A stretch of DNA of 64,000 bases. Origin: Longimicrobiales bacterium (GTDB taxonomy: Bacteria; Gemmatimonadota; Gemmatimonadetes; Longimicrobiales; Gaopeijiaceae). How positions within the stretch are numbered: the stretch's first letter is position 1; each line of letters starts with the position of its first letter. The notes under the pieces are model-generated. The model was not told where the DNA came from and did no database searches. It saw nothing but the letters and a program-made list of their open reading frames with translations. The position numbers and the translations under genes are program-made. Location of the stretch: NCBI GenBank assembly GCA_965219445.1, contig CBDCNQ010000003.1:288001-352000 (forward strand), written 5' to 3'. Shown here piece by piece: positions 6,901 to 28,428 of the stretch.

Positions 6901-7866
6901 ATGAGCAGATCGACCGACGCTTCGTTCCCGCAGACGTGCGACCGGATTCCACGGGCCCGAAGAAGCTGGTGCGTCGCCTCATGGACCGCGCTTCTCCTGC
7001 TTCCGCGGGCTGTGCAGGCACAAGAGGGAGTCCACCTGAACCCGGTGATCGCCAGGCTCGAGGCGGGAGAGACAGTGTACGGCCTCAGCACGCAGGACCT
7101 TTCCCTCTCTTACGCGCGCCAGGTCGCGCGGGCACCGGCAGACTTCATATATGTGGACATGGAGCACAGTCCTATGGATTTTCCTGCCTTGAGGATGTTC
7201 CTCCTGGCGATGGCCGATAAGCAGATGGTCCTCAGGAAGGGGAACGTGCAGCCCAACGTCAGTCTCTTTGCGCGCTTCGCGCCGCCGCCCCACGAATCCG
7301 AATGGGTCGTGAAGCAGGCTTTGGACCTCGGGCTGTACGGAATCATCTTCAACGGCGTGGACATTCCGGAGCAGGCAGCGTTCGCGGTCAGCACCATGCG
7401 TTATCCCCAGCTTCGGGATTCGCGTTATCCCGAGCCGAAGGGGATCCGGGGCTCCTCCGCGGGTAACGCGGCGTGGGCGTGGGGGGTGAGCTCGCAAGAG
7501 TATTTTCGGCGAGCCGACCTGTGGCCGCTCAATCCCGACGGGGACCTACTGGCCGTGATGATGATCGAGTCGGTCGAAGGCCTGCAGAATCTCGATGCGA
7601 TCGCTTCCACTCCGGGCGTCGGGGCTCTTTTCCCGGGCGCCGGCGGCGACCTGAGTCGCTCCCTGGGTGTCACTCAAGGGTCGCCCGAGCTCGAGGAAGC
7701 CTTCCAACAGATCCTTGCGGCCTGCAACAGACACGACGTAGCCTGCGCCATCTCGGCGAACACGGGTGAGGATGTCGCAAGGCGGGTACGGGAGGGCTGG
7801 CAGATCATCCGCACCTCGGTCACGGCGGCGAATGAGGGCCGCGCGATCCTCGGCGACGGTCTCTAG
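6901..7866 (+). CDS. HpcH/HpaI aldolase family protein with apparent signal peptide
   Basis: DMEH, KQALDLG, RYP...GIRG, MIES, GDLS motifs; N-terminal LLLLPRAVQA; start uncertain (6823 or 6901). Confidence 0.8.
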   Translation: MSRSTDASFPQTCDRIPRARRSWCVASWTALLLLPRAVQAQEGVHLNPVIARLEAGETVYGLSTQDLSLSYARQVARAPADFIYVDMEHSPMDFPALRMFLLAMADKQMVLRKGNVQPNVSLFARFAPPPHESEWVVKQALDLGLYGIIFNGVDIPEQAAFAVSTMRYPQLRDSRYPEPKGIRGSSAGNAAWAWGVSSQEYFRRADLWPLNPDGDLLAVMMIESVEGLQNLDAIASTPGVGALFPGAGGDLSRSLGVTQGSPELEEAFQQILAACNRHDVACAISANTGEDVARRVREGWQIIRTSVTAANEGRAILGDGL

Positions 7867-7893
7867 CCCTGAGGATCGAGACAAGCGCCATTC

Positions 7894-7985
7894 ATCGCAC
7901 CGGCCTCCGCGAATCGCACCGGCCTCCATTGAAGCATTCGCAGCAAGACGATACCGGCCCACAGACAGATACCGGCCCACAGACA
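7894..7985 (+). repeat. Two pairs of direct repeats upstream of the POT transporter
   Basis: ATCGCACCGGCCTCC at 7894 and 7913; GATACCGGCCCACAGACA tandem at 7950 and 7968. Confidence 0.85.
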
Positions 7986-7990
7986 TTGGA

Positions 7991-9514
7991 GTGGTTTTGA
8001 GTACGACTTCCGAGTACGCGACAACTCTGACTCAAGGGTCGGGCGGAAAAACGTTTTTCGGACAGCCGAGAGGGCTTTCCACCCTGTTCTTCACCGAGAT
8101 GTGGGAGCGCTTCTCGTACTACGGAATGCGGGCGCTCCTGATCCTTTTCATGACGGCGGCCTCGACCGGCGAGAATCCCGGCCTCGGTCTCGACGTGGGT
8201 ACGGCGGCGGCCATCTACGGGTTATACACGGGCCTCGTCTACTTGATGTCCCTGCCTGGCGGCTGGGTGGCCGACAACTTATGGGGGCAACGTAAGGCCG
8301 TATACGTCGGTGGATGGATCATCGCGGCGGGCCACTTCAGCATGGCCGTTCCGACGACCATGACCTTCTATGCCGGCCTGGTGCTCATCGTTCTGGGGAC
8401 TGGCCTCCTGAAGCCCAATGTCAGCACGGTCGTCGGAGATCTCTACCCCGAAGGCGGAGCGGCTCGCGACGCCGGGTTCTCGATCTTCTACATGGGGATC
8501 AACCTAGGCGCGCTCGTCGGCCCCCTCCTGTGCTCATTTCTCGGTGAGGGCTACAACTGGCACTGGGGATTTTCCGCCGCCGGATTCGGCATGGTATTGG
8601 GGCTCATCCAGTACAAGCTTGGTTCGGGCCTGCTGGGCGACGCCGGACACCTCAAGACCAACGACACCGAGGCCGAGCTCGCCGCGAAGACCCGGAAGTT
8701 CTTCGGTGGATTTTTCGCGATCGCCGCCACGATCGCGTTTTTCGGCTGGCTCGTCGCTCAAGGGATCATACCACTGACGCTGACGCAGATCGCTACTGTG
8801 CTCGGCAGCAGCATCCTGATCATCGTGGGACTCTACTTCGCGTACATCCTCACCCTGGGCGGCCATACCGGCGACGAGAAGAAGCGTTTGATCGTCATCC
8901 TCTGGCTCTTCATTCTCGCTGCGATCTTCTGGTCCGGCTTCGAGCAGGCCGGCTCGTCACTGAACTTGTTCGCGCAGGATCTCACGGACCGAAATATCTT
9001 CGGCTGGCTCATGCCGGCGGGTTTCCTCCAATCCGTGAACGCGGGCTTCATCATCATCTTCGCCCCTGTTTTCGCATCCCTTTGGGTGTGGCTCTCATCC
9101 CGAAACGCGAACCCGTCGATTCCGCTAAAGTTCGCCTTTGGCCTGCTCGGCCTCGCGGCAGGATTCTTCGTCATCGCTTGGGGAGCGTCGAACGCCACGG
9201 CCACGAACCCGGTCTCTCCAGCCTGGTTGATCGTGATGTACTTCCTCCACACCATGGGAGAACTCGCCCTGTCGCCAGTAGGCCTGTCGTCCATTACCAA
9301 GTTGGCCCCCGAGGGTCGAGTGGGTCAGATGATGGGCATCTGGTTCGTCGCGACCGCCCTGGGGACCCTGGTCGCAGGACTCGTCGCGGGCAGCCTGGAA
9401 ACCCTCGCTCCCTTCGCCCTCTTCCGTACAGTCGCGATGCTCCTCGCGGCGACCGGCATTGTCGCGTTACTCTTGAGCCCAAGGGTGAATAAGCTGATGG
9501 TTCACGTGGAGTAG
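7991..9514 (+). CDS. POT/PTR family proton-dependent oligopeptide transporter
   Basis: FFTEMWERFSYYGMR (ExxERFxYY), GTGLLKPN, FYMGINLG, GELALSPVGLS; start approximate. Confidence 0.93.
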   Translation: MVLSTTSEYATTLTQGSGGKTFFGQPRGLSTLFFTEMWERFSYYGMRALLILFMTAASTGENPGLGLDVGTAAAIYGLYTGLVYLMSLPGGWVADNLWGQRKAVYVGGWIIAAGHFSMAVPTTMTFYAGLVLIVLGTGLLKPNVSTVVGDLYPEGGAARDAGFSIFYMGINLGALVGPLLCSFLGEGYNWHWGFSAAGFGMVLGLIQYKLGSGLLGDAGHLKTNDTEAELAAKTRKFFGGFFAIAATIAFFGWLVAQGIIPLTLTQIATVLGSSILIIVGLYFAYILTLGGHTGDEKKRLIVILWLFILAAIFWSGFEQAGSSLNLFAQDLTDRNIFGWLMPAGFLQSVNAGFIIIFAPVFASLWVWLSSRNANPSIPLKFAFGLLGLAAGFFVIAWGASNATATNPVSPAWLIVMYFLHTMGELALSPVGLSSITKLAPEGRVGQMMGIWFVATALGTLVAGLVAGSLETLAPFALFRTVAMLLAATGIVALLLSPRVNKLMVHVE

Positions 9515-22987: not shown

Positions 22988-24268
22988 TCAACCTTCCTGT
23001 TCACCCTCCGCCGCATAGGGGGCATCCAGACGAAACTCGGGATGTAGCGCGAGAAACGCTTGGACTCGGGCCTCCCGACTCAACGCTGTCGGAATGAAAT
23101 CAAGCGCCTGCTGCAGCCGCTCGTCGGACGCCGCACAGCTGAACCTCAGGAAGCCGGCCCCCGCGTCGCCGAAGCATTCCCCGCCCAGGCAGGCTACGCC
23201 GAACTGGTCGTCGGCCCCCTCCAGCAGATAGACCGCCAGACCGTGGCTGGTGATGCCCATCCGATTGCAGACGCTCGACACGTCCGAAAAGACATAGAAC
23301 GTGGCACGGGGCTCGAGCGTGCGGAAGCCATCGAGGCGGTTGAGGCCCTCGGTCAGCAAGCTCACCTTTCGGCCGAACTTTTCCATCGCCGTACCCCGCT
23401 CGGAGGAGTCCGTCTCCAACGCGGCCTTGCCGGCGATCTGCACCAAGGGTGGCGTGCACGAGAGCGTCGTGTTGATCATCGTGCCCACGGACTCGGCCGT
23501 GGTGGGCGATGACACGGCGAACCCGAGTCGCCACCCGCTCATGCTGTAGGATTTGCTGAACGTGTACGCGGCAAGCCCATGGTCCAGCATATCGGGCTGA
23601 GCCATCAAGGAATGGTGGCGACCCTTCCACACCATATGGCAGTACGGTTCATCACTGAAGACGGCGATCTGCTCGCCTCGAATCAGGTCGGCGATGCCCC
23701 GGAGGTCCTCCTCGGTCGCCACGCCCCCGGTCGGGTTGTGCGGCGAGTTGAGGAAGATCGCCTTCGGTGAAGGATCCTCCGCCAGGAAGTGCTCGATCTC
23801 CGCAGTGTCCGGCCGAAAGTCGTTCGTCTGCTTGAGGGGTGCGAACACCGGCCGACCGCCTCGTCGCTCGATGTTCGGCACATACGTCGGAAAATAGGGG
23901 CTGAAGACCAACACCCCATCACCCGGATTCAAGAACGCCTCGCAGAAGAACTGCTCGAAGACCTTGGCACCTGGGGCCACGACCACGTTCTCCCGCTCGG
24001 CGGGGATCCCGAATTCGTCGCGAACGAGTCGAGCCGCCGCGTCGCGGAATTCCGGCAGACCGGGTGACGGGCAGTAGTGGGACTGGTTCTGTTCGATGGC
24101 TTCGATGCCGGCGGTCTTGGCCGAATCCGGAGTGTCGAACGGGCTGTCACCGATCTCCAGCTCGACTACATCCTTCCCCGAGGCCTGCAGCTGCTTGGCT
24201 GTAGCCAGAACGGTGAACGCGGTTTCGGCCGTCAGGGACTTCGCGAAGGTACTGAGCTCAACGGTCAC
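22988..24268 (-). CDS. Class I/II PLP-dependent aminotransferase
   Basis: NSPHNPTG, SDEPY, TFSKSYSMSGWRLG, LRFS. Confidence 0.93.
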   Translation of the reverse strand: MTVELSTFAKSLTAETAFTVLATAKQLQASGKDVVELEIGDSPFDTPDSAKTAGIEAIEQNQSHYCPSPGLPEFRDAAARLVRDEFGIPAERENVVVAPGAKVFEQFFCEAFLNPGDGVLVFSPYFPTYVPNIERRGGRPVFAPLKQTNDFRPDTAEIEHFLAEDPSPKAIFLNSPHNPTGGVATEEDLRGIADLIRGEQIAVFSDEPYCHMVWKGRHHSLMAQPDMLDHGLAAYTFSKSYSMSGWRLGFAVSSPTTAESVGTMINTTLSCTPPLVQIAGKAALETDSSERGTAMEKFGRKVSLLTEGLNRLDGFRTLEPRATFYVFSDVSSVCNRMGITSHGLAVYLLEGADDQFGVACLGGECFGDAGAGFLRFSCAASDERLQQALDFIPTALSREARVQAFLALHPEFRLDAPYAAEGEQEG

Positions 24269-24449
24269 GGGATCTCGGTGTTGCGAGGGGCGAGCGCATC
24301 GGGGGGCAATCCACCCTCCGACGAGGGCACACAAGATGTGGCCGACTCCTGCGGTGCCACAAGCAGCTTGCAGCGATCGGCACTTGCGAAATGGCAGACA
24401 CCCACTCATGTCGTACCGTGCGACTTACTTGCTTGCGATCCAGGGGGAA

Positions 24450-25325
24450 ATGGTGGCGGACATCGGTGGTCAAAAATCGTCGGAGCAGAGAGTGCGACGG
24501 GTCCTACGGGAAATCCGTTCCGGATCGAGAATGGGTTGGGACGAATTTGCCGAGCGGGTGGGTCACGCCGGCTTTCAGGTATCCCCCGCGGCCGTGCGTG
24601 GGTACGAAGAGGGACGAACGAAAAAAGTCCCCATCGCTTACGTCGATGCGGTGTGCCGCGCTTTTGGTGCGTCGCCGGCAAGCTTCTTCGCGGAGGATCT
24701 CGACGGAGCTCGGGACTCGCCTGATGAAGCCGAACGGCAACTCTCGGCCATCAGACAGATTCTCCGGGAATCTAATCCGGTCGCCCAGAGTCGACCGGAG
24801 GCTCCCCACGAGCCCGGGTCTCTACGGCGCCGTTTCCTTTCCGCAATTTCCGAGTACAGCGATCTCGAGGTGGAGCGGATCTGCGACCTGAACCATGAGA
24901 CGGTTCGGCAGTACCGCCAAGGGCAATGGCCGACCCGCGGCCCCAACGCATCGACCGAAGGCAAGATCGAGCGATTCCTGGAGCTCCACGAGCAGCGGCG
25001 AACGGCTGCGGCCACCCACGAGGGCGAGCTTCCCGCTCTGGTCGAGGGACTGATCGCCTTCGCCGAGGAATGGGAGAATGACCAGGAGTTCCGTGAACGT
25101 TACCCGAAGCACGGATGGATATCGATCACCGAGGACGCGATCCGGCAACTGAGGCGACTCCAGCTGGTGCGCTACGACGATGAGATCGCCTGGCTGGCTT
25201 ATAAACGGGCCGTTGGGTACACCCCGGAAAGTGCCGATGACGTCGGGCTCGCCGACCTAGGTATGAGCATCGACCCGTTTCTATCACGAGCATCGCAACG
25301 CAAAGCCGGAGAAGAGTCAAACTAA
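24450..25325 (+). CDS. XRE-family regulator with two HTH-like regions
   Basis: LREIR..MGWDEFAERV...SPAAVRGYEEG...AVCRAFG; second HTH-like SDLEVERICDLNHETVRQYRQG; GGGGG RBS-like run before ATG 24450. Confidence 0.75.
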   Translation: MVADIGGQKSSEQRVRRVLREIRSGSRMGWDEFAERVGHAGFQVSPAAVRGYEEGRTKKVPIAYVDAVCRAFGASPASFFAEDLDGARDSPDEAERQLSAIRQILRESNPVAQSRPEAPHEPGSLRRRFLSAISEYSDLEVERICDLNHETVRQYRQGQWPTRGPNASTEGKIERFLELHEQRRTAAATHEGELPALVEGLIAFAEEWENDQEFRERYPKHGWISITEDAIRQLRRLQLVRYDDEIAWLAYKRAVGYTPESADDVGLADLGMSIDPFLSRASQRKAGEESN

Positions 25326-25432
25326 AATAACCCTAATTATTGCGCTTTTGTACTTTATCAGCTTGATTCCTGTGCAGGGGCATCGTGGCTTCCCCATGAC
25401 CGCCCCCCGGATCAGATCACAGGAGGCACGAG

Positions 25433-25576
25433 ATGAGCAAGCTGATGAGGATGTGGGTGTTCTTGGCGGTCACGGGATTCATGACGGCGTGTGGGGGATC
25501 GCCGGTCGATCTAGCGGGCGGTTGCGGCGGTGTGCCGTCCCCGAACAGCTACTGTGACGACGATGACGACGATTGA
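25433..25576 (+). CDS. 47-aa small lipoprotein / peptide precursor (below ORF-track cutoff)
   Basis: AGGAGG at 25421-25426, 6 nt before ATG; MSKLMRMWVFLAVTGFMTA-CGGSPVDLAGGCGGVPSPNSYCDDDDDD; basic n-region, hydrophobic h-region, MTAC lipobox. Confidence 0.8.
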   Translation: MSKLMRMWVFLAVTGFMTACGGSPVDLAGGCGGVPSPNSYCDDDDDD

Positions 25577-26961
25577 GCTCCGCTAGCTAACAGTTCGAGC
25601 TGGGTCCGGATCTCTTCTTCTTCGGTATCGCGAACCACCGGGTCCGGGTCCAGCAAGGGCTGCCAAGGTCTTTCGAGGTCGAGCGCCGCTTCGATGTCGA
25701 ACACGAGCTTACCGAGCTTCGCCTCCTCGGCGTAGCGGAGCGCCGCCTCGAGGGCGTCTTGCCCCTCCGGCCGGTCGAGGGCGAGTAGGGCCTGACCTCG
25801 CTCAAAGAGGATCTGTCCTTTCCCCATCGCTGATAGTTCGGCGTCGTCGACTTTCGACGAAAAAAAATCGAAGGACGCCTCGTCTCCTCTGAAGGCGGAC
25901 ATCACGGCGAGGTTCTGGGCGGCGTGGTGTCGAGTCTCGGTAAGCGGCGAGCCATTCATCGTCATGAGGTTACAACACCAGGCCTCCTCTGATCTTCCCA
26001 GTCTACGAAAGCAGTCACCGAGCGTAACGAGAATATCCCATTCGTCGTCGAGCCCACGCGCCTCCGTGAAGGCGCGCCATCCGACTCGAACCGCTTCGGT
26101 CCAGGCTTCGGCGTCGCGATGGATCAGCATGAGCCCGAAATAGCCCTGTGCGACCGCCTGCCGGGCTCCGGCAGTCTGGCCCTCTTCGATCGCCGAGCGG
26201 AAGAGAGTCTCGGCCGCGGCGATCGCGCCCTTTTCCCGACGGACGTTCGCGAGACCGATAGCCACGTGGGCCGCCGCATCGAGCCTCCCAAACGCAAGCG
26301 CCGTGTCCCGGGCCTGCTGATACCAAGTGACGGCTTCGTCCCATCGCCCGAGTTTGCGAAGCGCTCTACCTAAAAAGCGCGCTGCGCGGATCGCCGCAGC
26401 TTTATTCGCCGTGGAAAGAGCGGCCTCGTGGGCCTGGCTGTAGGTGGTGATCGCCGACTCGAAGTCGGAAGCGTCCTCCGTGGCCTCGCCCTCGGCGATC
26501 AGTTCCGTTACGGAAAGGTTCGCAGTCGGCTCGACCCCTTCAATCCGCCCGATCGCCCAGGTCGCCACCCAGGCGGCGATCTCAGCCGCACGGCCCAAGT
26601 TCCTGCCGACCTCCAAGCGGCGATCCCCCTGAAGGACGAGAAACCAGGATCGGCCGTGACGCTCAGCCAGGAACAGGCCTGCCCACGTATTGGCTCTGGT
26701 TTGGCCACTGTGGAGCCGTCCAACCACGGACTCCCTTCGGCTGTTCCTGATGAATTCCTCCGGGACGCTCTCGAACCCGCATCCGTGCTCCGCCTCCGGG
26801 GGGCAGAGCGTCAGGTAGGGGTGCAGCACCCCGCCATTCTCCGTGTAAGACCAAACCAAGCCGGCGCTCGCGGCCCCCGACTCCTGCTTGAGCGTCGCCA
26901 GTTTCGGTGCCAGGCGGCTCCGAATCGGATCGTAGGAGTAAAGCTGGAATTTGCGTGTCAT
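25549..26961 (-). CDS. TPR protein with N-terminal alpha/beta (GAF-like?) region
   Basis: Repeated TPR helices (LGRALRKLGRWDEAVTWYQQA, LANVRREKG, LGDCFRRLGRSEEA); ATG 26961 follows an AT-rich region. Confidence 0.8.
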   Translation of the reverse strand: MTRKFQLYSYDPIRSRLAPKLATLKQESGAASAGLVWSYTENGGVLHPYLTLCPPEAEHGCGFESVPEEFIRNSRRESVVGRLHSGQTRANTWAGLFLAERHGRSWFLVLQGDRRLEVGRNLGRAAEIAAWVATWAIGRIEGVEPTANLSVTELIAEGEATEDASDFESAITTYSQAHEAALSTANKAAAIRAARFLGRALRKLGRWDEAVTWYQQARDTALAFGRLDAAAHVAIGLANVRREKGAIAAAETLFRSAIEEGQTAGARQAVAQGYFGLMLIHRDAEAWTEAVRVGWRAFTEARGLDDEWDILVTLGDCFRRLGRSEEAWCCNLMTMNGSPLTETRHHAAQNLAVMSAFRGDEASFDFFSSKVDDAELSAMGKGQILFERGQALLALDRPEGQDALEAALRYAEEAKLGKLVFDIEAALDLERPWQPLLDPDPVVRDTEEEEIRTQLELLASGAQSSSSSSQ

Positions 26962-27075
26962 GGCATTAATTTTATGAGTGATGGCAGGCGTTAATATGGC
27001 ATTGCTAATATAGTCAGCGCTCACCCCGGGAGAAAAGGCGCATGAATGGATAATACAACGAATTTTGCGCAACTA

Positions 27076-27104
27076 TTGCTTAGTGTGCCCCGCATGTTTA
27101 GACT
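27076..27104 (+). promoter_or_regulatory. Sigma70-like promoter TTGCTT-17-TAGACT
   Basis: Exact 17-nt spacer in AT-rich DNA divergent from the TPR gene. Confidence 0.6.
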
Positions 27105-27110
27105 GGTGTT

Positions 27111-27219
27111 AAGGCACGTGCGGGCAGGTGCCCTGGCTTCTATGACCCTGGGGGGGGCTCTTGAGTCAGAACTGTTGCGCGGTGGAGGGTTGCCGCGGAC
27201 CGACTGCCCGCACCTTTTT
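27111..27219 (+). ncRNA. Candidate structured RNA (three-way junction followed by U-tract)
   Basis: GTGCGGGCAG (27118-27127) pairs perfectly with CTGCCCGCAC (27204-27213) and encloses two hairpins; followed by CTTTTT; promoter immediately upstream. Confidence 0.45.
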
Positions 27220-27377: not shown

Positions 27378-27995
27378 ATGACTCCTGCCACCGAAAGGAT
27401 CTTCGGCGTCATCCTGGCCGGAGGCCAGAGCCGCCGGTTCGGCCGGGCGAAGCCGTTCGCAGTACTTGGCGGAGCTCCCATGGCAAGCTGGGGAGTGCGG
27501 GCGCTTAAGGCGGCGGGCTTGGCCGTCGGCGTCGTATCGGACGACGATGGTATGGAGGCAGCGCTCGGTGTCCCGGCTCGACCCGATCTGGAGGCCGGAC
27601 TCGGCCCGATCGGCGGGCTATGGACGGCACTCCGATGGGCCCAGGAAAGAGGAGACGACGGCGTGCTGCTTCTCGGGTGCGACATGCCCCTCGTGAGTGA
27701 GGCGATGCTTCGGGCCGTCCTCGGCTGGAGCGACACTGCGCCAGCGGTGGTCCCCATGGGCCCGGAGGGTCCCGAGCCGCTGTGCGCCCTCTACCGAGCC
27801 GCGTGTGCGTCGGTGATCCAGCACAGGCTCCGCTCCAAAGACCTGTCGATGCGTGGGCTGGCACAAGCTCTCGGGGCAGCGCTGATCGGTGAGGAGGACG
27901 TCGCCGCGGTCACGGACCCACAGATCGACTTCCTAAACGTGAATACTGTGACGGATCGGGATCGGGCCGAGCATTTTCTCACCACGCGTCGCTAG
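27378..27995 (+). CDS. mobA: Molybdenum cofactor guanylyltransferase
   Basis: ILAGGQSRRFG..K, GPIGGL, CDMP, EPLCALY, NVNT. Confidence 0.9.
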   Translation: MTPATERIFGVILAGGQSRRFGRAKPFAVLGGAPMASWGVRALKAAGLAVGVVSDDDGMEAALGVPARPDLEAGLGPIGGLWTALRWAQERGDDGVLLLGCDMPLVSEAMLRAVLGWSDTAPAVVPMGPEGPEPLCALYRAACASVIQHRLRSKDLSMRGLAQALGAALIGEEDVAAVTDPQIDFLNVNTVTDRDRAEHFLTTRR

Positions 27996-28024: not shown

Positions 28025-28414
28025 CTAACCACCCGCGCCGCCGGACCCTCCGGCGCGTGGCTCATATTCCAACTCGAACTCTACGCGCACGATGCCGGGT
28101 ATCGCTCGGACGACGGCGCCGAGACTCTGCTGAACCGTTCCGAAGCCGCCAGGCGTGAAGCGGCCTCCACAGCCCTCACAGACAACCGACCCCCTCAGCG
28201 TCACTACCCCGTTGCTCACGTCCACGGTAATCGAATCCGCCGGAACGTCGGACGCACTTTCGAGGGCCGCCTCGACCCGCGCCCTGAGCACTTCGTCGGG
28301 CACACTCTGGGTGGCTTCCGACCCGCAGGCGCCAAGGGATAGGGCGGCACCGAAGGAGATGGCGACTGCGGAACGGAACGTGGACGCCCTCCATCTCACT
28401 GTTCTCACGGTCAC
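28025..28414 (-). CDS. BON-domain lipoprotein with CxxC insert
   Basis: LGAC lipobox; DEVLRARVEAAL...ITVDVSNGVVTLRGSV-VCEGC...AIPGIVRV; start approximate. Confidence 0.75.
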   Translation of the reverse strand: MTVRTVRWRASTFRSAVAISFGAALSLGACGSEATQSVPDEVLRARVEAALESASDVPADSITVDVSNGVVTLRGSVVCEGCGGRFTPGGFGTVQQSLGAVVRAIPGIVRVEFELEYEPRAGGSGGAGG

Positions 28415-28428
28415 TTCCCGTAACGGTC

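Follow-up and report, generated by a model that had tools for sequence, protein, structure and literature searches.

Intracellular signaling through peptides and their receptors is described, in the account of PMC10075063, as a trait of the Bacillota, with Pseudomonadota and Actinomycetota typically using small molecules. In the same account the RRNPP receptors are described from Firmicutes and their elements, the underlying search having covered Firmicutes and viruses (PMC10075063). The system that most invites comparison with the locus analyzed here is Rap-pLS20/Phr*pLS20/Rco-pLS20 of the Bacillus subtilis plasmid pLS20 (PDB 6t3h, 6t46), in which, as PMC7430634 reports, Rap-pLS20 binds the helix-turn-helix (HTH) repressor Rco and the peptide releases Rco. 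Our subject is a locus in a 64-kb stretch of DNA, hereafter the window (contig CBDCNQ010000003.1, positions 288,001 to 352,000), from a Longimicrobiales bacterium of the phylum Gemmatimonadota. An XRE-family regulator gene, a lipopeptide gene, a gene for a tetratricopeptide repeat (TPR) protein, and a structured RNA lie side by side in it, and all four parts are borne out as real.

The likeness to pLS20 consists of a TPR receptor without a DNA-binding domain of its own, an exported pro-peptide of roughly 45 residues, and a separately encoded HTH repressor. The cassette differs in its diderm host, its lipobox precursor, its convergent genes, and the GAF-like N-terminal domain of its receptor, with 13-14% identity; no conjugation genes were seen here, and the likeness is one of genes and predicted fold. 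With the wider RRNPP group (Rap, NprR, PlcR, Rgg, PrgX, AimR) the cassette shares a C-terminal core, duplications, paralog-specific codes, and, among its homologs, HTH-TPR fusions (P0069, P0113); its Gemmatimonadota host lies outside the described Bacillota range. The five signature features that PMC10075063 gives for RRNPP systems are found here as far as they were tested, among them a propeptide of 10-100 residues (47 here, 40-91 in the family), a Sec-type signal on it (lipoprotein-type, by script filter), a cytoplasmic TPR receptor of 250-500 residues (470), and adjacent genes (-60 to 400 bp; -28 nucleotides (nt) here).

By analogy, the best reading is that the cassette works like an RRNPP system, whether or not it belongs to that group. 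In our view the locus is a recurring cassette, likely a peptide switch of the Rap-Phr type; we lean towards this account, place more trust in the binding of the peptide by the TPR protein, and doubt the complete chain from peptide via XRE to RNA. What had been predicted, an RRNPP-analogous system in a diderm with its DNA-binding part encoded separately, is supported in part, by the gene linkage and the signature, but the XRE partner is confined to one clade, the RNA is accessory, and the proposed importer is unlinked. The cassette is real, conserved, and undescribed in the literature searched: no TPR-lipopeptide system of this kind in Gemmatimonadota was found by title or abstract in a body of literature that was short on subscription journals and excluded supplements, including the RRNPP_detector candidate tables.

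The pairing of the TPR gene with a small lipoprotein gene carries this reading. Close homologs of the TPR protein (50-95% identity) are numerous across assemblies, and in the ESM Atlas the nearest cluster is found most often in Gemmatimonadota. The representatives that score at E 0.001 or better number 770, many of which are generic TPR proteins; many relatives have about 600 residues. A family profile built from 63 members matches 80 of 151 phylum genomes and 127 of 251 order genomes, tallies that include the own genome plus the unpublished G025, G094, G235, and G248 (other claims are independent of those four); an ortholog is present in 3 of the 11 other genomes of the genus. Linkage was scored as a convergent lipobox open reading frame (ORF) of 25-100 residues ending -40 to +260 nt from the TPR stop codon. 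Of the fetched loci, 15 were removed, 14 as duplicates and one as belonging to an unpublished genome, which left 143 with a family match. A further 21 were dropped: in ten, all from other classes, the match was weak and partial and a peptide was absent (L085-L094), in two more it was partial, two had a truncated gene, and in seven the sequence ended less than 300 nt beyond the stop. The remaining loci are best-scoring matches rather than a random sample, and kin among them are non-independent. A lipobox ORF is found in 101 of these 122 loci, compared with 7 of 1,483 other long genes of the own genome passed through the identical filter (8 of 1,484 counting this locus). TPR homologs therefore do have small secreted neighbors, as the original prediction required. 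Receptors less than 30% identical still share the pairing and the tail-to-tail spacing, and peptide-family matches in five genomes searched lie at cassette sites in 4 of 4 cases. By sequence comparison, the TPR-peptide linkage spans the class Gemmatimonadetes.

A lipoprotein could stay in the envelope and never meet the TPR protein, the pair being merely a regulator and a regulated membrane lipoprotein inherited together. The genes are convergent and hence not one operon, and 21 of the 122 TPR genes have no adjacent peptide gene, including nine scored loci of one family-f3 branch (L122-L130) and two interrupted by insertion sequences (IS). Yet the pairing and spacing persist at less than 30% receptor identity while an AraC-type regulator is swapped for XRE, and the mature part of the peptide (median 28 residues) is too short and variable for a folded lipoprotein; we consider this account improbable. 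That family-f3 receptor branch (L122-L131) is without an adjacent lipobox gene, while the peptides of a nested branch (L033, L034, L120, L121) end in GY/GF-x-NNN. The 28-nt overlap of the convergent genes, claimed for the window, is present there but unconserved, as is the poly-Asp tail of the peptide (the gap is +14 nt in G006 and -3 nt in G008), and the overlap was rejected as a functional feature.

The window's peptide has a basic N-terminus, a hydrophobic core, and a lipobox (MTA-C20), making its signal lipoprotein-type by our own script filter. In nine orthologs, the variable columns over codons 2-25 number 10, 11, and 21 at codon positions 1, 2, and 3, respectively; this coding pattern, the lipobox, and the AGGAGG ribosome-binding site (RBS) bear out the 47-residue peptide with a strong RBS that had been proposed, with export as a prediction. 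The hairpin of the leader is kept by eye, and the leader alone folds with a z score of 0.27. Across the 101 family peptides, a short Pro-containing linker motif follows the lipobox Cys in 89, two further Cys occur in 55, and tandem repeats in 31 (HTLGSGN, YDIGSNS, HTPDSGS, DFVNPHV), with up to six copies; Gly, Asn, Ser, Pro, and Thr make up most of the last eight residues. The clade to which the window belongs keeps a stable tail core, xPxPN[SG], which reads VPSPNS here (residues 34-39, inside the Cys31-Cys41 bracket) and VVDPNS, NPDPNS, or WPSPNS in orthologs, with WPTPNG in two other genera and NPSPSS in a paralog. VPSPNS is accordingly the candidate signal core, and the poly-Asp tail behind it is lineage-specific. 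At L139, where the TPR core is 77% identical, the peptide has no Cys loop and repeats D-P-N-G five times, which argues that the short core is the functional unit. Tail motifs track the receptor tree, and paralogs within one genome carry different tails (G027, G120). Enterococcal sex pheromones come from lipoprotein signal peptides, and they share with this family a lipoprotein gene as the source of the peptide signal; here, in contrast, the repeated and conserved part is the mature C-terminal tail.

A peptide that binds the TPR protein might still be a private signal, with the tail freed in the cell's own periplasm or a mis-exported precursor doing the binding, so that the pair would form a timer or an envelope or secretion sensor and no quorum system. 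Such a sensor would suit a precursor that is lipid-anchored in 101 of 101 peptides (partly by construction of the filter), an outer membrane, which hinders the sharing of peptides between cells, and a GAF-like domain that could add a second, small-molecule input. However, the lineage- and paralog-specific tail codes, in up to six tandem copies, look like amplified kin-specific signals, and intragenic duplication is reported for RRNPP propeptides in PMC10075063. We regard a private signal as rather unlikely.

The TPR protein matches TPR_12 with E 1.7e-14 and shows no signal peptide or membrane helix in a hydrophobicity scan. Its AlphaFold model (predicted local distance difference test score 93) comprises an N-terminal alpha/beta domain (residues 1-140), helical repeats (150-430), and a C-terminal helix. 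The N-terminal domain, with the predicted order helix-strand-strand-helix-helix-strand-strand-helix, is GAF-like by topology; further GAF leads come from the ESM Atlas (0.78-0.79) and, weakly, from a GAF_2 match in one of seven N-termini (E 0.15). In VIA-align, residues 145-417 superpose on peptide-bound Rap (4gyo) with Z 22.1 and a root-mean-square deviation of 3.6 over 268 residues, followed by RapI (Z 21.3), Rap-pLS20 (Z 20.0-20.3), and further Rap proteins and NprR (Z 17-21). A comparison of the fold with Rap had been suggested, and its outcome is divided: Rap comes first in VIA-align, but the eukaryotic protein LGN ties with it (Z 21.6; 11% identity), and Foldseek puts LGN first, with Rap from rank 42. 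The fold matches listed (50 from VIA, 40 from Foldseek) include no AimR, PlcR, or Rgg, which excludes nothing. By sequence, Rap (E 3e-6) lies far below generic TPR proteins, which hidden Markov model searches favor as well. Given the tie with LGN, RRNPP homology is not shown; since Rap and LGN have both been solved with peptides bound, the predicted fold suits a peptide receptor without proving RRNPP ancestry.

The regulator had been described as a double-HTH XRE protein. Its first HTH (residues 17-77) is identified by Pfam as HTH_31, whereas the second has no Pfam match and is indicated only by ESM Atlas HTH clusters, which residues 110-291 match at 0.90; it is probably located at about residues 125-180. 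The C-terminal domain matches no known family. A search for longer forms of the XRE gave one match, in which XRE is joined to an unrelated DUF (PF19313) protein; it was set aside as probably an artefact or a chance fusion. The expected neighborhood of XRE and TPR genes holds within the window's clade, but most relatives have instead a divergent AraC-type regulator gene beyond the peptide gene, a regulator absent from the own genome. The arrangement with XRE co-directional with the peptide gene and the TPR gene convergent to both recurs in G006, G008, L139, L141, and L144, partially at contig ends in L140 and L146, and in two other genera at 52-54% TPR identity (L186, L190). The L186 cassette lies between mnmG-like and parA-like genes (by eye), and the XRE of L190 is partly matched and apparently broken. 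Assemblies apparently common to the TPR and XRE homolog tables number 12 (by eye), five of them with a longest contig below 14 kb.

Two TPR homologs (P0069 and P0113) are fused to the N-terminal HTH of this XRE, with 41% and 45% identity; no XRE-TPR fusion was seen among the matches listed in 251 family genomes. Together with P0054 (by eye), P0069 and P0113 (Pfam-supported) are TPR-family proteins with an N-terminal HTH, an architecture like that of PlcR and NprR. In other genera of the family, PAS domains too are found fused to members of this HTH clade (L187:448-1533, L189:8686-9696). G006 has a second, diverged cassette that appears, by eye, to have been split by IS256-like copies (L136:1233-2674 and L024:5969-7414; TPR 28%, XRE 42-43%). 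Its XRE and peptide genes face an HTH_17 gene (70 residues, excisionase-like, E 2e-4), and its TPR gene is about 420 kb off, roughly 7 kb from a tmRNA-like gene (by eye) with a duplicated end, possibly an island integration site.

These surroundings raise the question of whether the XRE form is the remnant of a prophage or integrative element, an arbitrium-like lysogeny switch now stranded or decaying. The excisionase-like gene facing the diverged XRE of G006 would fit such an origin, as would the matches of XRE to phage and PHROG transcription-regulator families, the occurrence of the cassette in at least five different neighborhoods, and its loss in several relatives: the XRE gene is truncated and runs into mobA in G001, a transposase gene follows the TPR gene in G007 (93% complete), which has no XRE or peptide match, and a deletion spans XRE start to RNA in L153. 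On the other hand, no integrase or phage gene was recognized by eye among the long ORFs of the window, on which no family scan was run; a viral collection gave no match to the TPR protein, a fused homolog, or two RNA patterns; the TPR protein has no PHROG match; and many assemblies have the cassette genes unbroken, at 72-95% identity. We hold a stranded element to be unlikely, and as an account of origin it is compatible with the chemistry of a peptide switch.

The region upstream of the TPR gene contains candidate regulatory sites. A stringent sigma-70 scan of the window found no promoter, but the pattern TTG-N3-17 nt-TAnnnT is found here, and 9 of the 12 regions upstream of XRE-clade TPR genes have it at the same spacing with a freely varying spacer (about 0.011 expected by chance in each region). 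The palindrome CAA-N3-TTG overlaps the -35 box in 11 of the 12, in tandem with 11-bp spacing in six; the first palindrome is degenerate in the window. The RNA element behind the promoter (105 nt) is 88% conserved over nine sequences, with indels. Taken by itself, the window RNA shows no folding advantage over shuffles (z -1.2), but the consensus of the + strand forms a three-way junction (-41.75 kcal/mol) with 96.9% of cells paired, compared with 38-52% in slid controls, closed by a stem of 27118-27127 with 27204-27213. The promoter-driven structured RNA that had been claimed is thus carried by comparison across loci, the single-sequence scan and fold alone being negative. A minus-strand RNA was rejected on its weaker consensus (-22.5 kcal/mol), and a small ORF on the frame-breaking indels in G007, L137, L143, and L153. 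Rfam covariance models gave only sub-threshold, unrelated matches, and by-eye likenesses to cobalamin, SAM, Moco, fluoride, HDV-like, and group II intron RNAs were dropped for want of a model match. The RNA was also dismissed as a mobA leader, the sole mobA-only case (L153) being a deletion and other genes lying downstream elsewhere.

Named records with the element belong to Gemmatimonadota, Longimicrobiales, and UBA6960; searches located it in 1 of 150 other genomes of the family with the RNA model, limited to 26 scored candidates in each, and in 1 of 400 other genomes of the phylum with a 20-nt pattern. Three copies occur in G341 (L199:4034-4120, L199:6158-6246, L200:5032-5116), none beside a TPR gene, and two of them flank one amidohydrolase-like gene in opposite orientations. 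They keep the closing stem with differing inner arms, two being three-way (z -2.7 and -1.0) and the third different inside (z -1.9); a MAFFT alignment including them placed the inner arms wrongly and yielded no covariation of use. These TPR-free copies lend weight to the idea of a small RNA in its own right, or a mobile repeat, that lies behind the TPR promoter by chance, or of a cis-leader of the next gene. It was not found at four distant XRE-type loci (L147, L186, L190, L024), of which L186 keeps the promoter, and the U-tract after it is unconserved. For the opposite speak its single copy in this genome and its constant place beside the TPR gene, whichever of at least four different neighbors lies downstream; independence remains a serious prospect, if slightly the lesser one. 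Its absence from distant XRE loci and its TPR-free copies make the RNA accessory, and from these comparisons we take it to be a genuine small RNA of narrow distribution and an optional part of the cassette. AimX is the RNA output of arbitrium, and AimR-AimP-AimX resembles the cassette in combining a receptor, a peptide, and an adjacent non-coding RNA; it differs in that no phage context was found here and that the RNA is divergent, upstream of the receptor gene, and optional.

The tie with LGN and the sequence rank of Rap are among several points that weigh against a peptide switch. The peptide-less TPR loci indicate that the receptor can persist without an adjacent peptide. Agreement between tail motifs and the receptor tree is expected from co-inheritance alone, and the mature peptide is not always more variable than the receptor (0.59 vs 0.60 in the 55-70% identity bin). 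By the E. coli +2 rule, a lipoprotein without Asp at +2 is bound for the outer membrane; Asp occupies +2 in 1 of 101 peptides, which by analogy suggests that the family lipoproteins are sorted there. No linked protease was seen that could release a lipid-anchored precursor in a two-membrane cell. The XRE partner is limited to the window's clade, and the PAS fusions weaken the argument from HTH-TPR fusions. Covariation in the RNA, with one two-sided change, does not exceed that of shuffles (337 of 500 reach it), and the distant loci without the RNA count on the same side. Finally, the breakage or deletion of the cassette in G001, G007, and L153 means that this copy may not be active.

If the peptide-switch reading is right, the cell would export and lipidate the small lipoprotein, and cleavage would free a core of 5-8 residues, here probably VPSPNS, possibly as a disulfide loop. 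The freed tail would re-enter through an unlinked peptide transporter and bind the TPR groove; the TPR protein might then act as an anti-repressor or co-regulator of XRE, which would bind the CAA-N3-TTG boxes and set RNA expression. The genome encodes Opp-type binding proteins and a POT transporter, all unlinked to the cassette. The speculative link to the POT importer did not hold up: its gene is 15 kb away, and no POT match occurs in 200 fetched loci, 58 of them at least 8 kb long. It is a POT/PTR2 peptide transporter at window positions 7742-9511 (+), also put at about 8294-9394, and the only POT matched in the genome.

Table 1. Positions of the cassette parts and flanking genes in the window.
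Feature	Positions	Strand	Support
XRE-family regulator, 291 residues	24450..25325	+	HTH_31 (E 2.4e-6); PHROG transcription-regulator matches; ESM Atlas HTH clusters; 79 homologs
Leader of peptide gene: AT-rich head, hairpin arms CATCGTGG/CCATGAC, RBS AGGAGG (25421-25426)	25323..25432	+	
47-residue pro-lipopeptide: signal peptide, lipobox Cys20, SPV linker, Cys31-Cys41 bracket, poly-Asp tail; last 28 nt (25549-25576) overlap the TPR gene	25433..25576	+	
470-residue TPR protein	25549..26961	-	Pfam TPR_12; AlphaFold model; fold comparison; hydrophobicity scan
Tandem CAA-N3-TTG palindromes, candidate operator	27059..27078	.	Palindromes in XRE-clade TPR upstream regions
Sigma-70-type promoter TTGCTT-17-TAGACT, divergent from TPR gene	27076..27104	+	Pattern and spacing across loci
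Non-coding structured RNA, 10-bp closing stem and two internal arms	27111..27215	+	
Class I/II aminotransferase (PF00155), flank outside the unit	22988..24268	-	
mobA-like nucleotidyltransferase (PF12804), flank outside the unit	27378..27995	+	

The three protein genes are each single-copy in the genome. Flanks other than the aminotransferase gene are found in L139, L143, L144, L186, and L190, and genes other than mobA follow the RNA in G007, L137, L139, and L143. The spacers had been called markedly AT-rich, which holds for the sub-stretches 25323-25372 (GC content 0.32; 0.1 percentile of 50-nt windows 0.38) and 26955-27115 (0.447; 0.1 percentile of 160-nt windows 0.444) but not for the entire spacers (0.51 and 0.56; genome 0.63). 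Upstream of XRE, a short motif, TTGCGAAATGGCAGAC (window 24380-24425), has counterparts in G008 and L139 and is a possible XRE promoter. Contigs matching the region show strain variation only. In runs X1 and X5, a second contig matches short stretches at the XRE end and the TPR end, spaced 473 vs 468 nt, and by sequence it is probably a more distant cassette copy in another organism. A small lipoprotein-like ORF, BON-like by eye, follows mobA at window positions 28025-28420 (-), followed by xanthine-dehydrogenase-like genes. Outside the window, 17 tRNA genes are packed closely together at G000:C3:31920-34298, which is uncommon for a core region of the chromosome.

For the phylum, a bolder proposal can be put forward with due hesitation: the Gemmatimonadota may possess a class-wide, undescribed pheromone family made up of a tiny lipoprotein pro-pheromone, a TPR receptor, and a swappable regulator, and in the form found here the peptide would free XRE from tandem operators to switch on a new small RNA, which would make it the Gram-negative equivalent of Rap-Phr-Rco or of arbitrium. 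The XRE form brings a candidate operator, promoter, and RNA output together in one 3-kb unit. Since the mature signals can be predicted straight from the repeated tails, the specificity of receptor for peptide lends itself to tests with short synthetic peptides and E. coli reporters. If true, this lipoprotein-derived version would extend peptide-receptor signaling to a diderm phylum, and would pose the new question of how a peptide gets out and back across two membranes.

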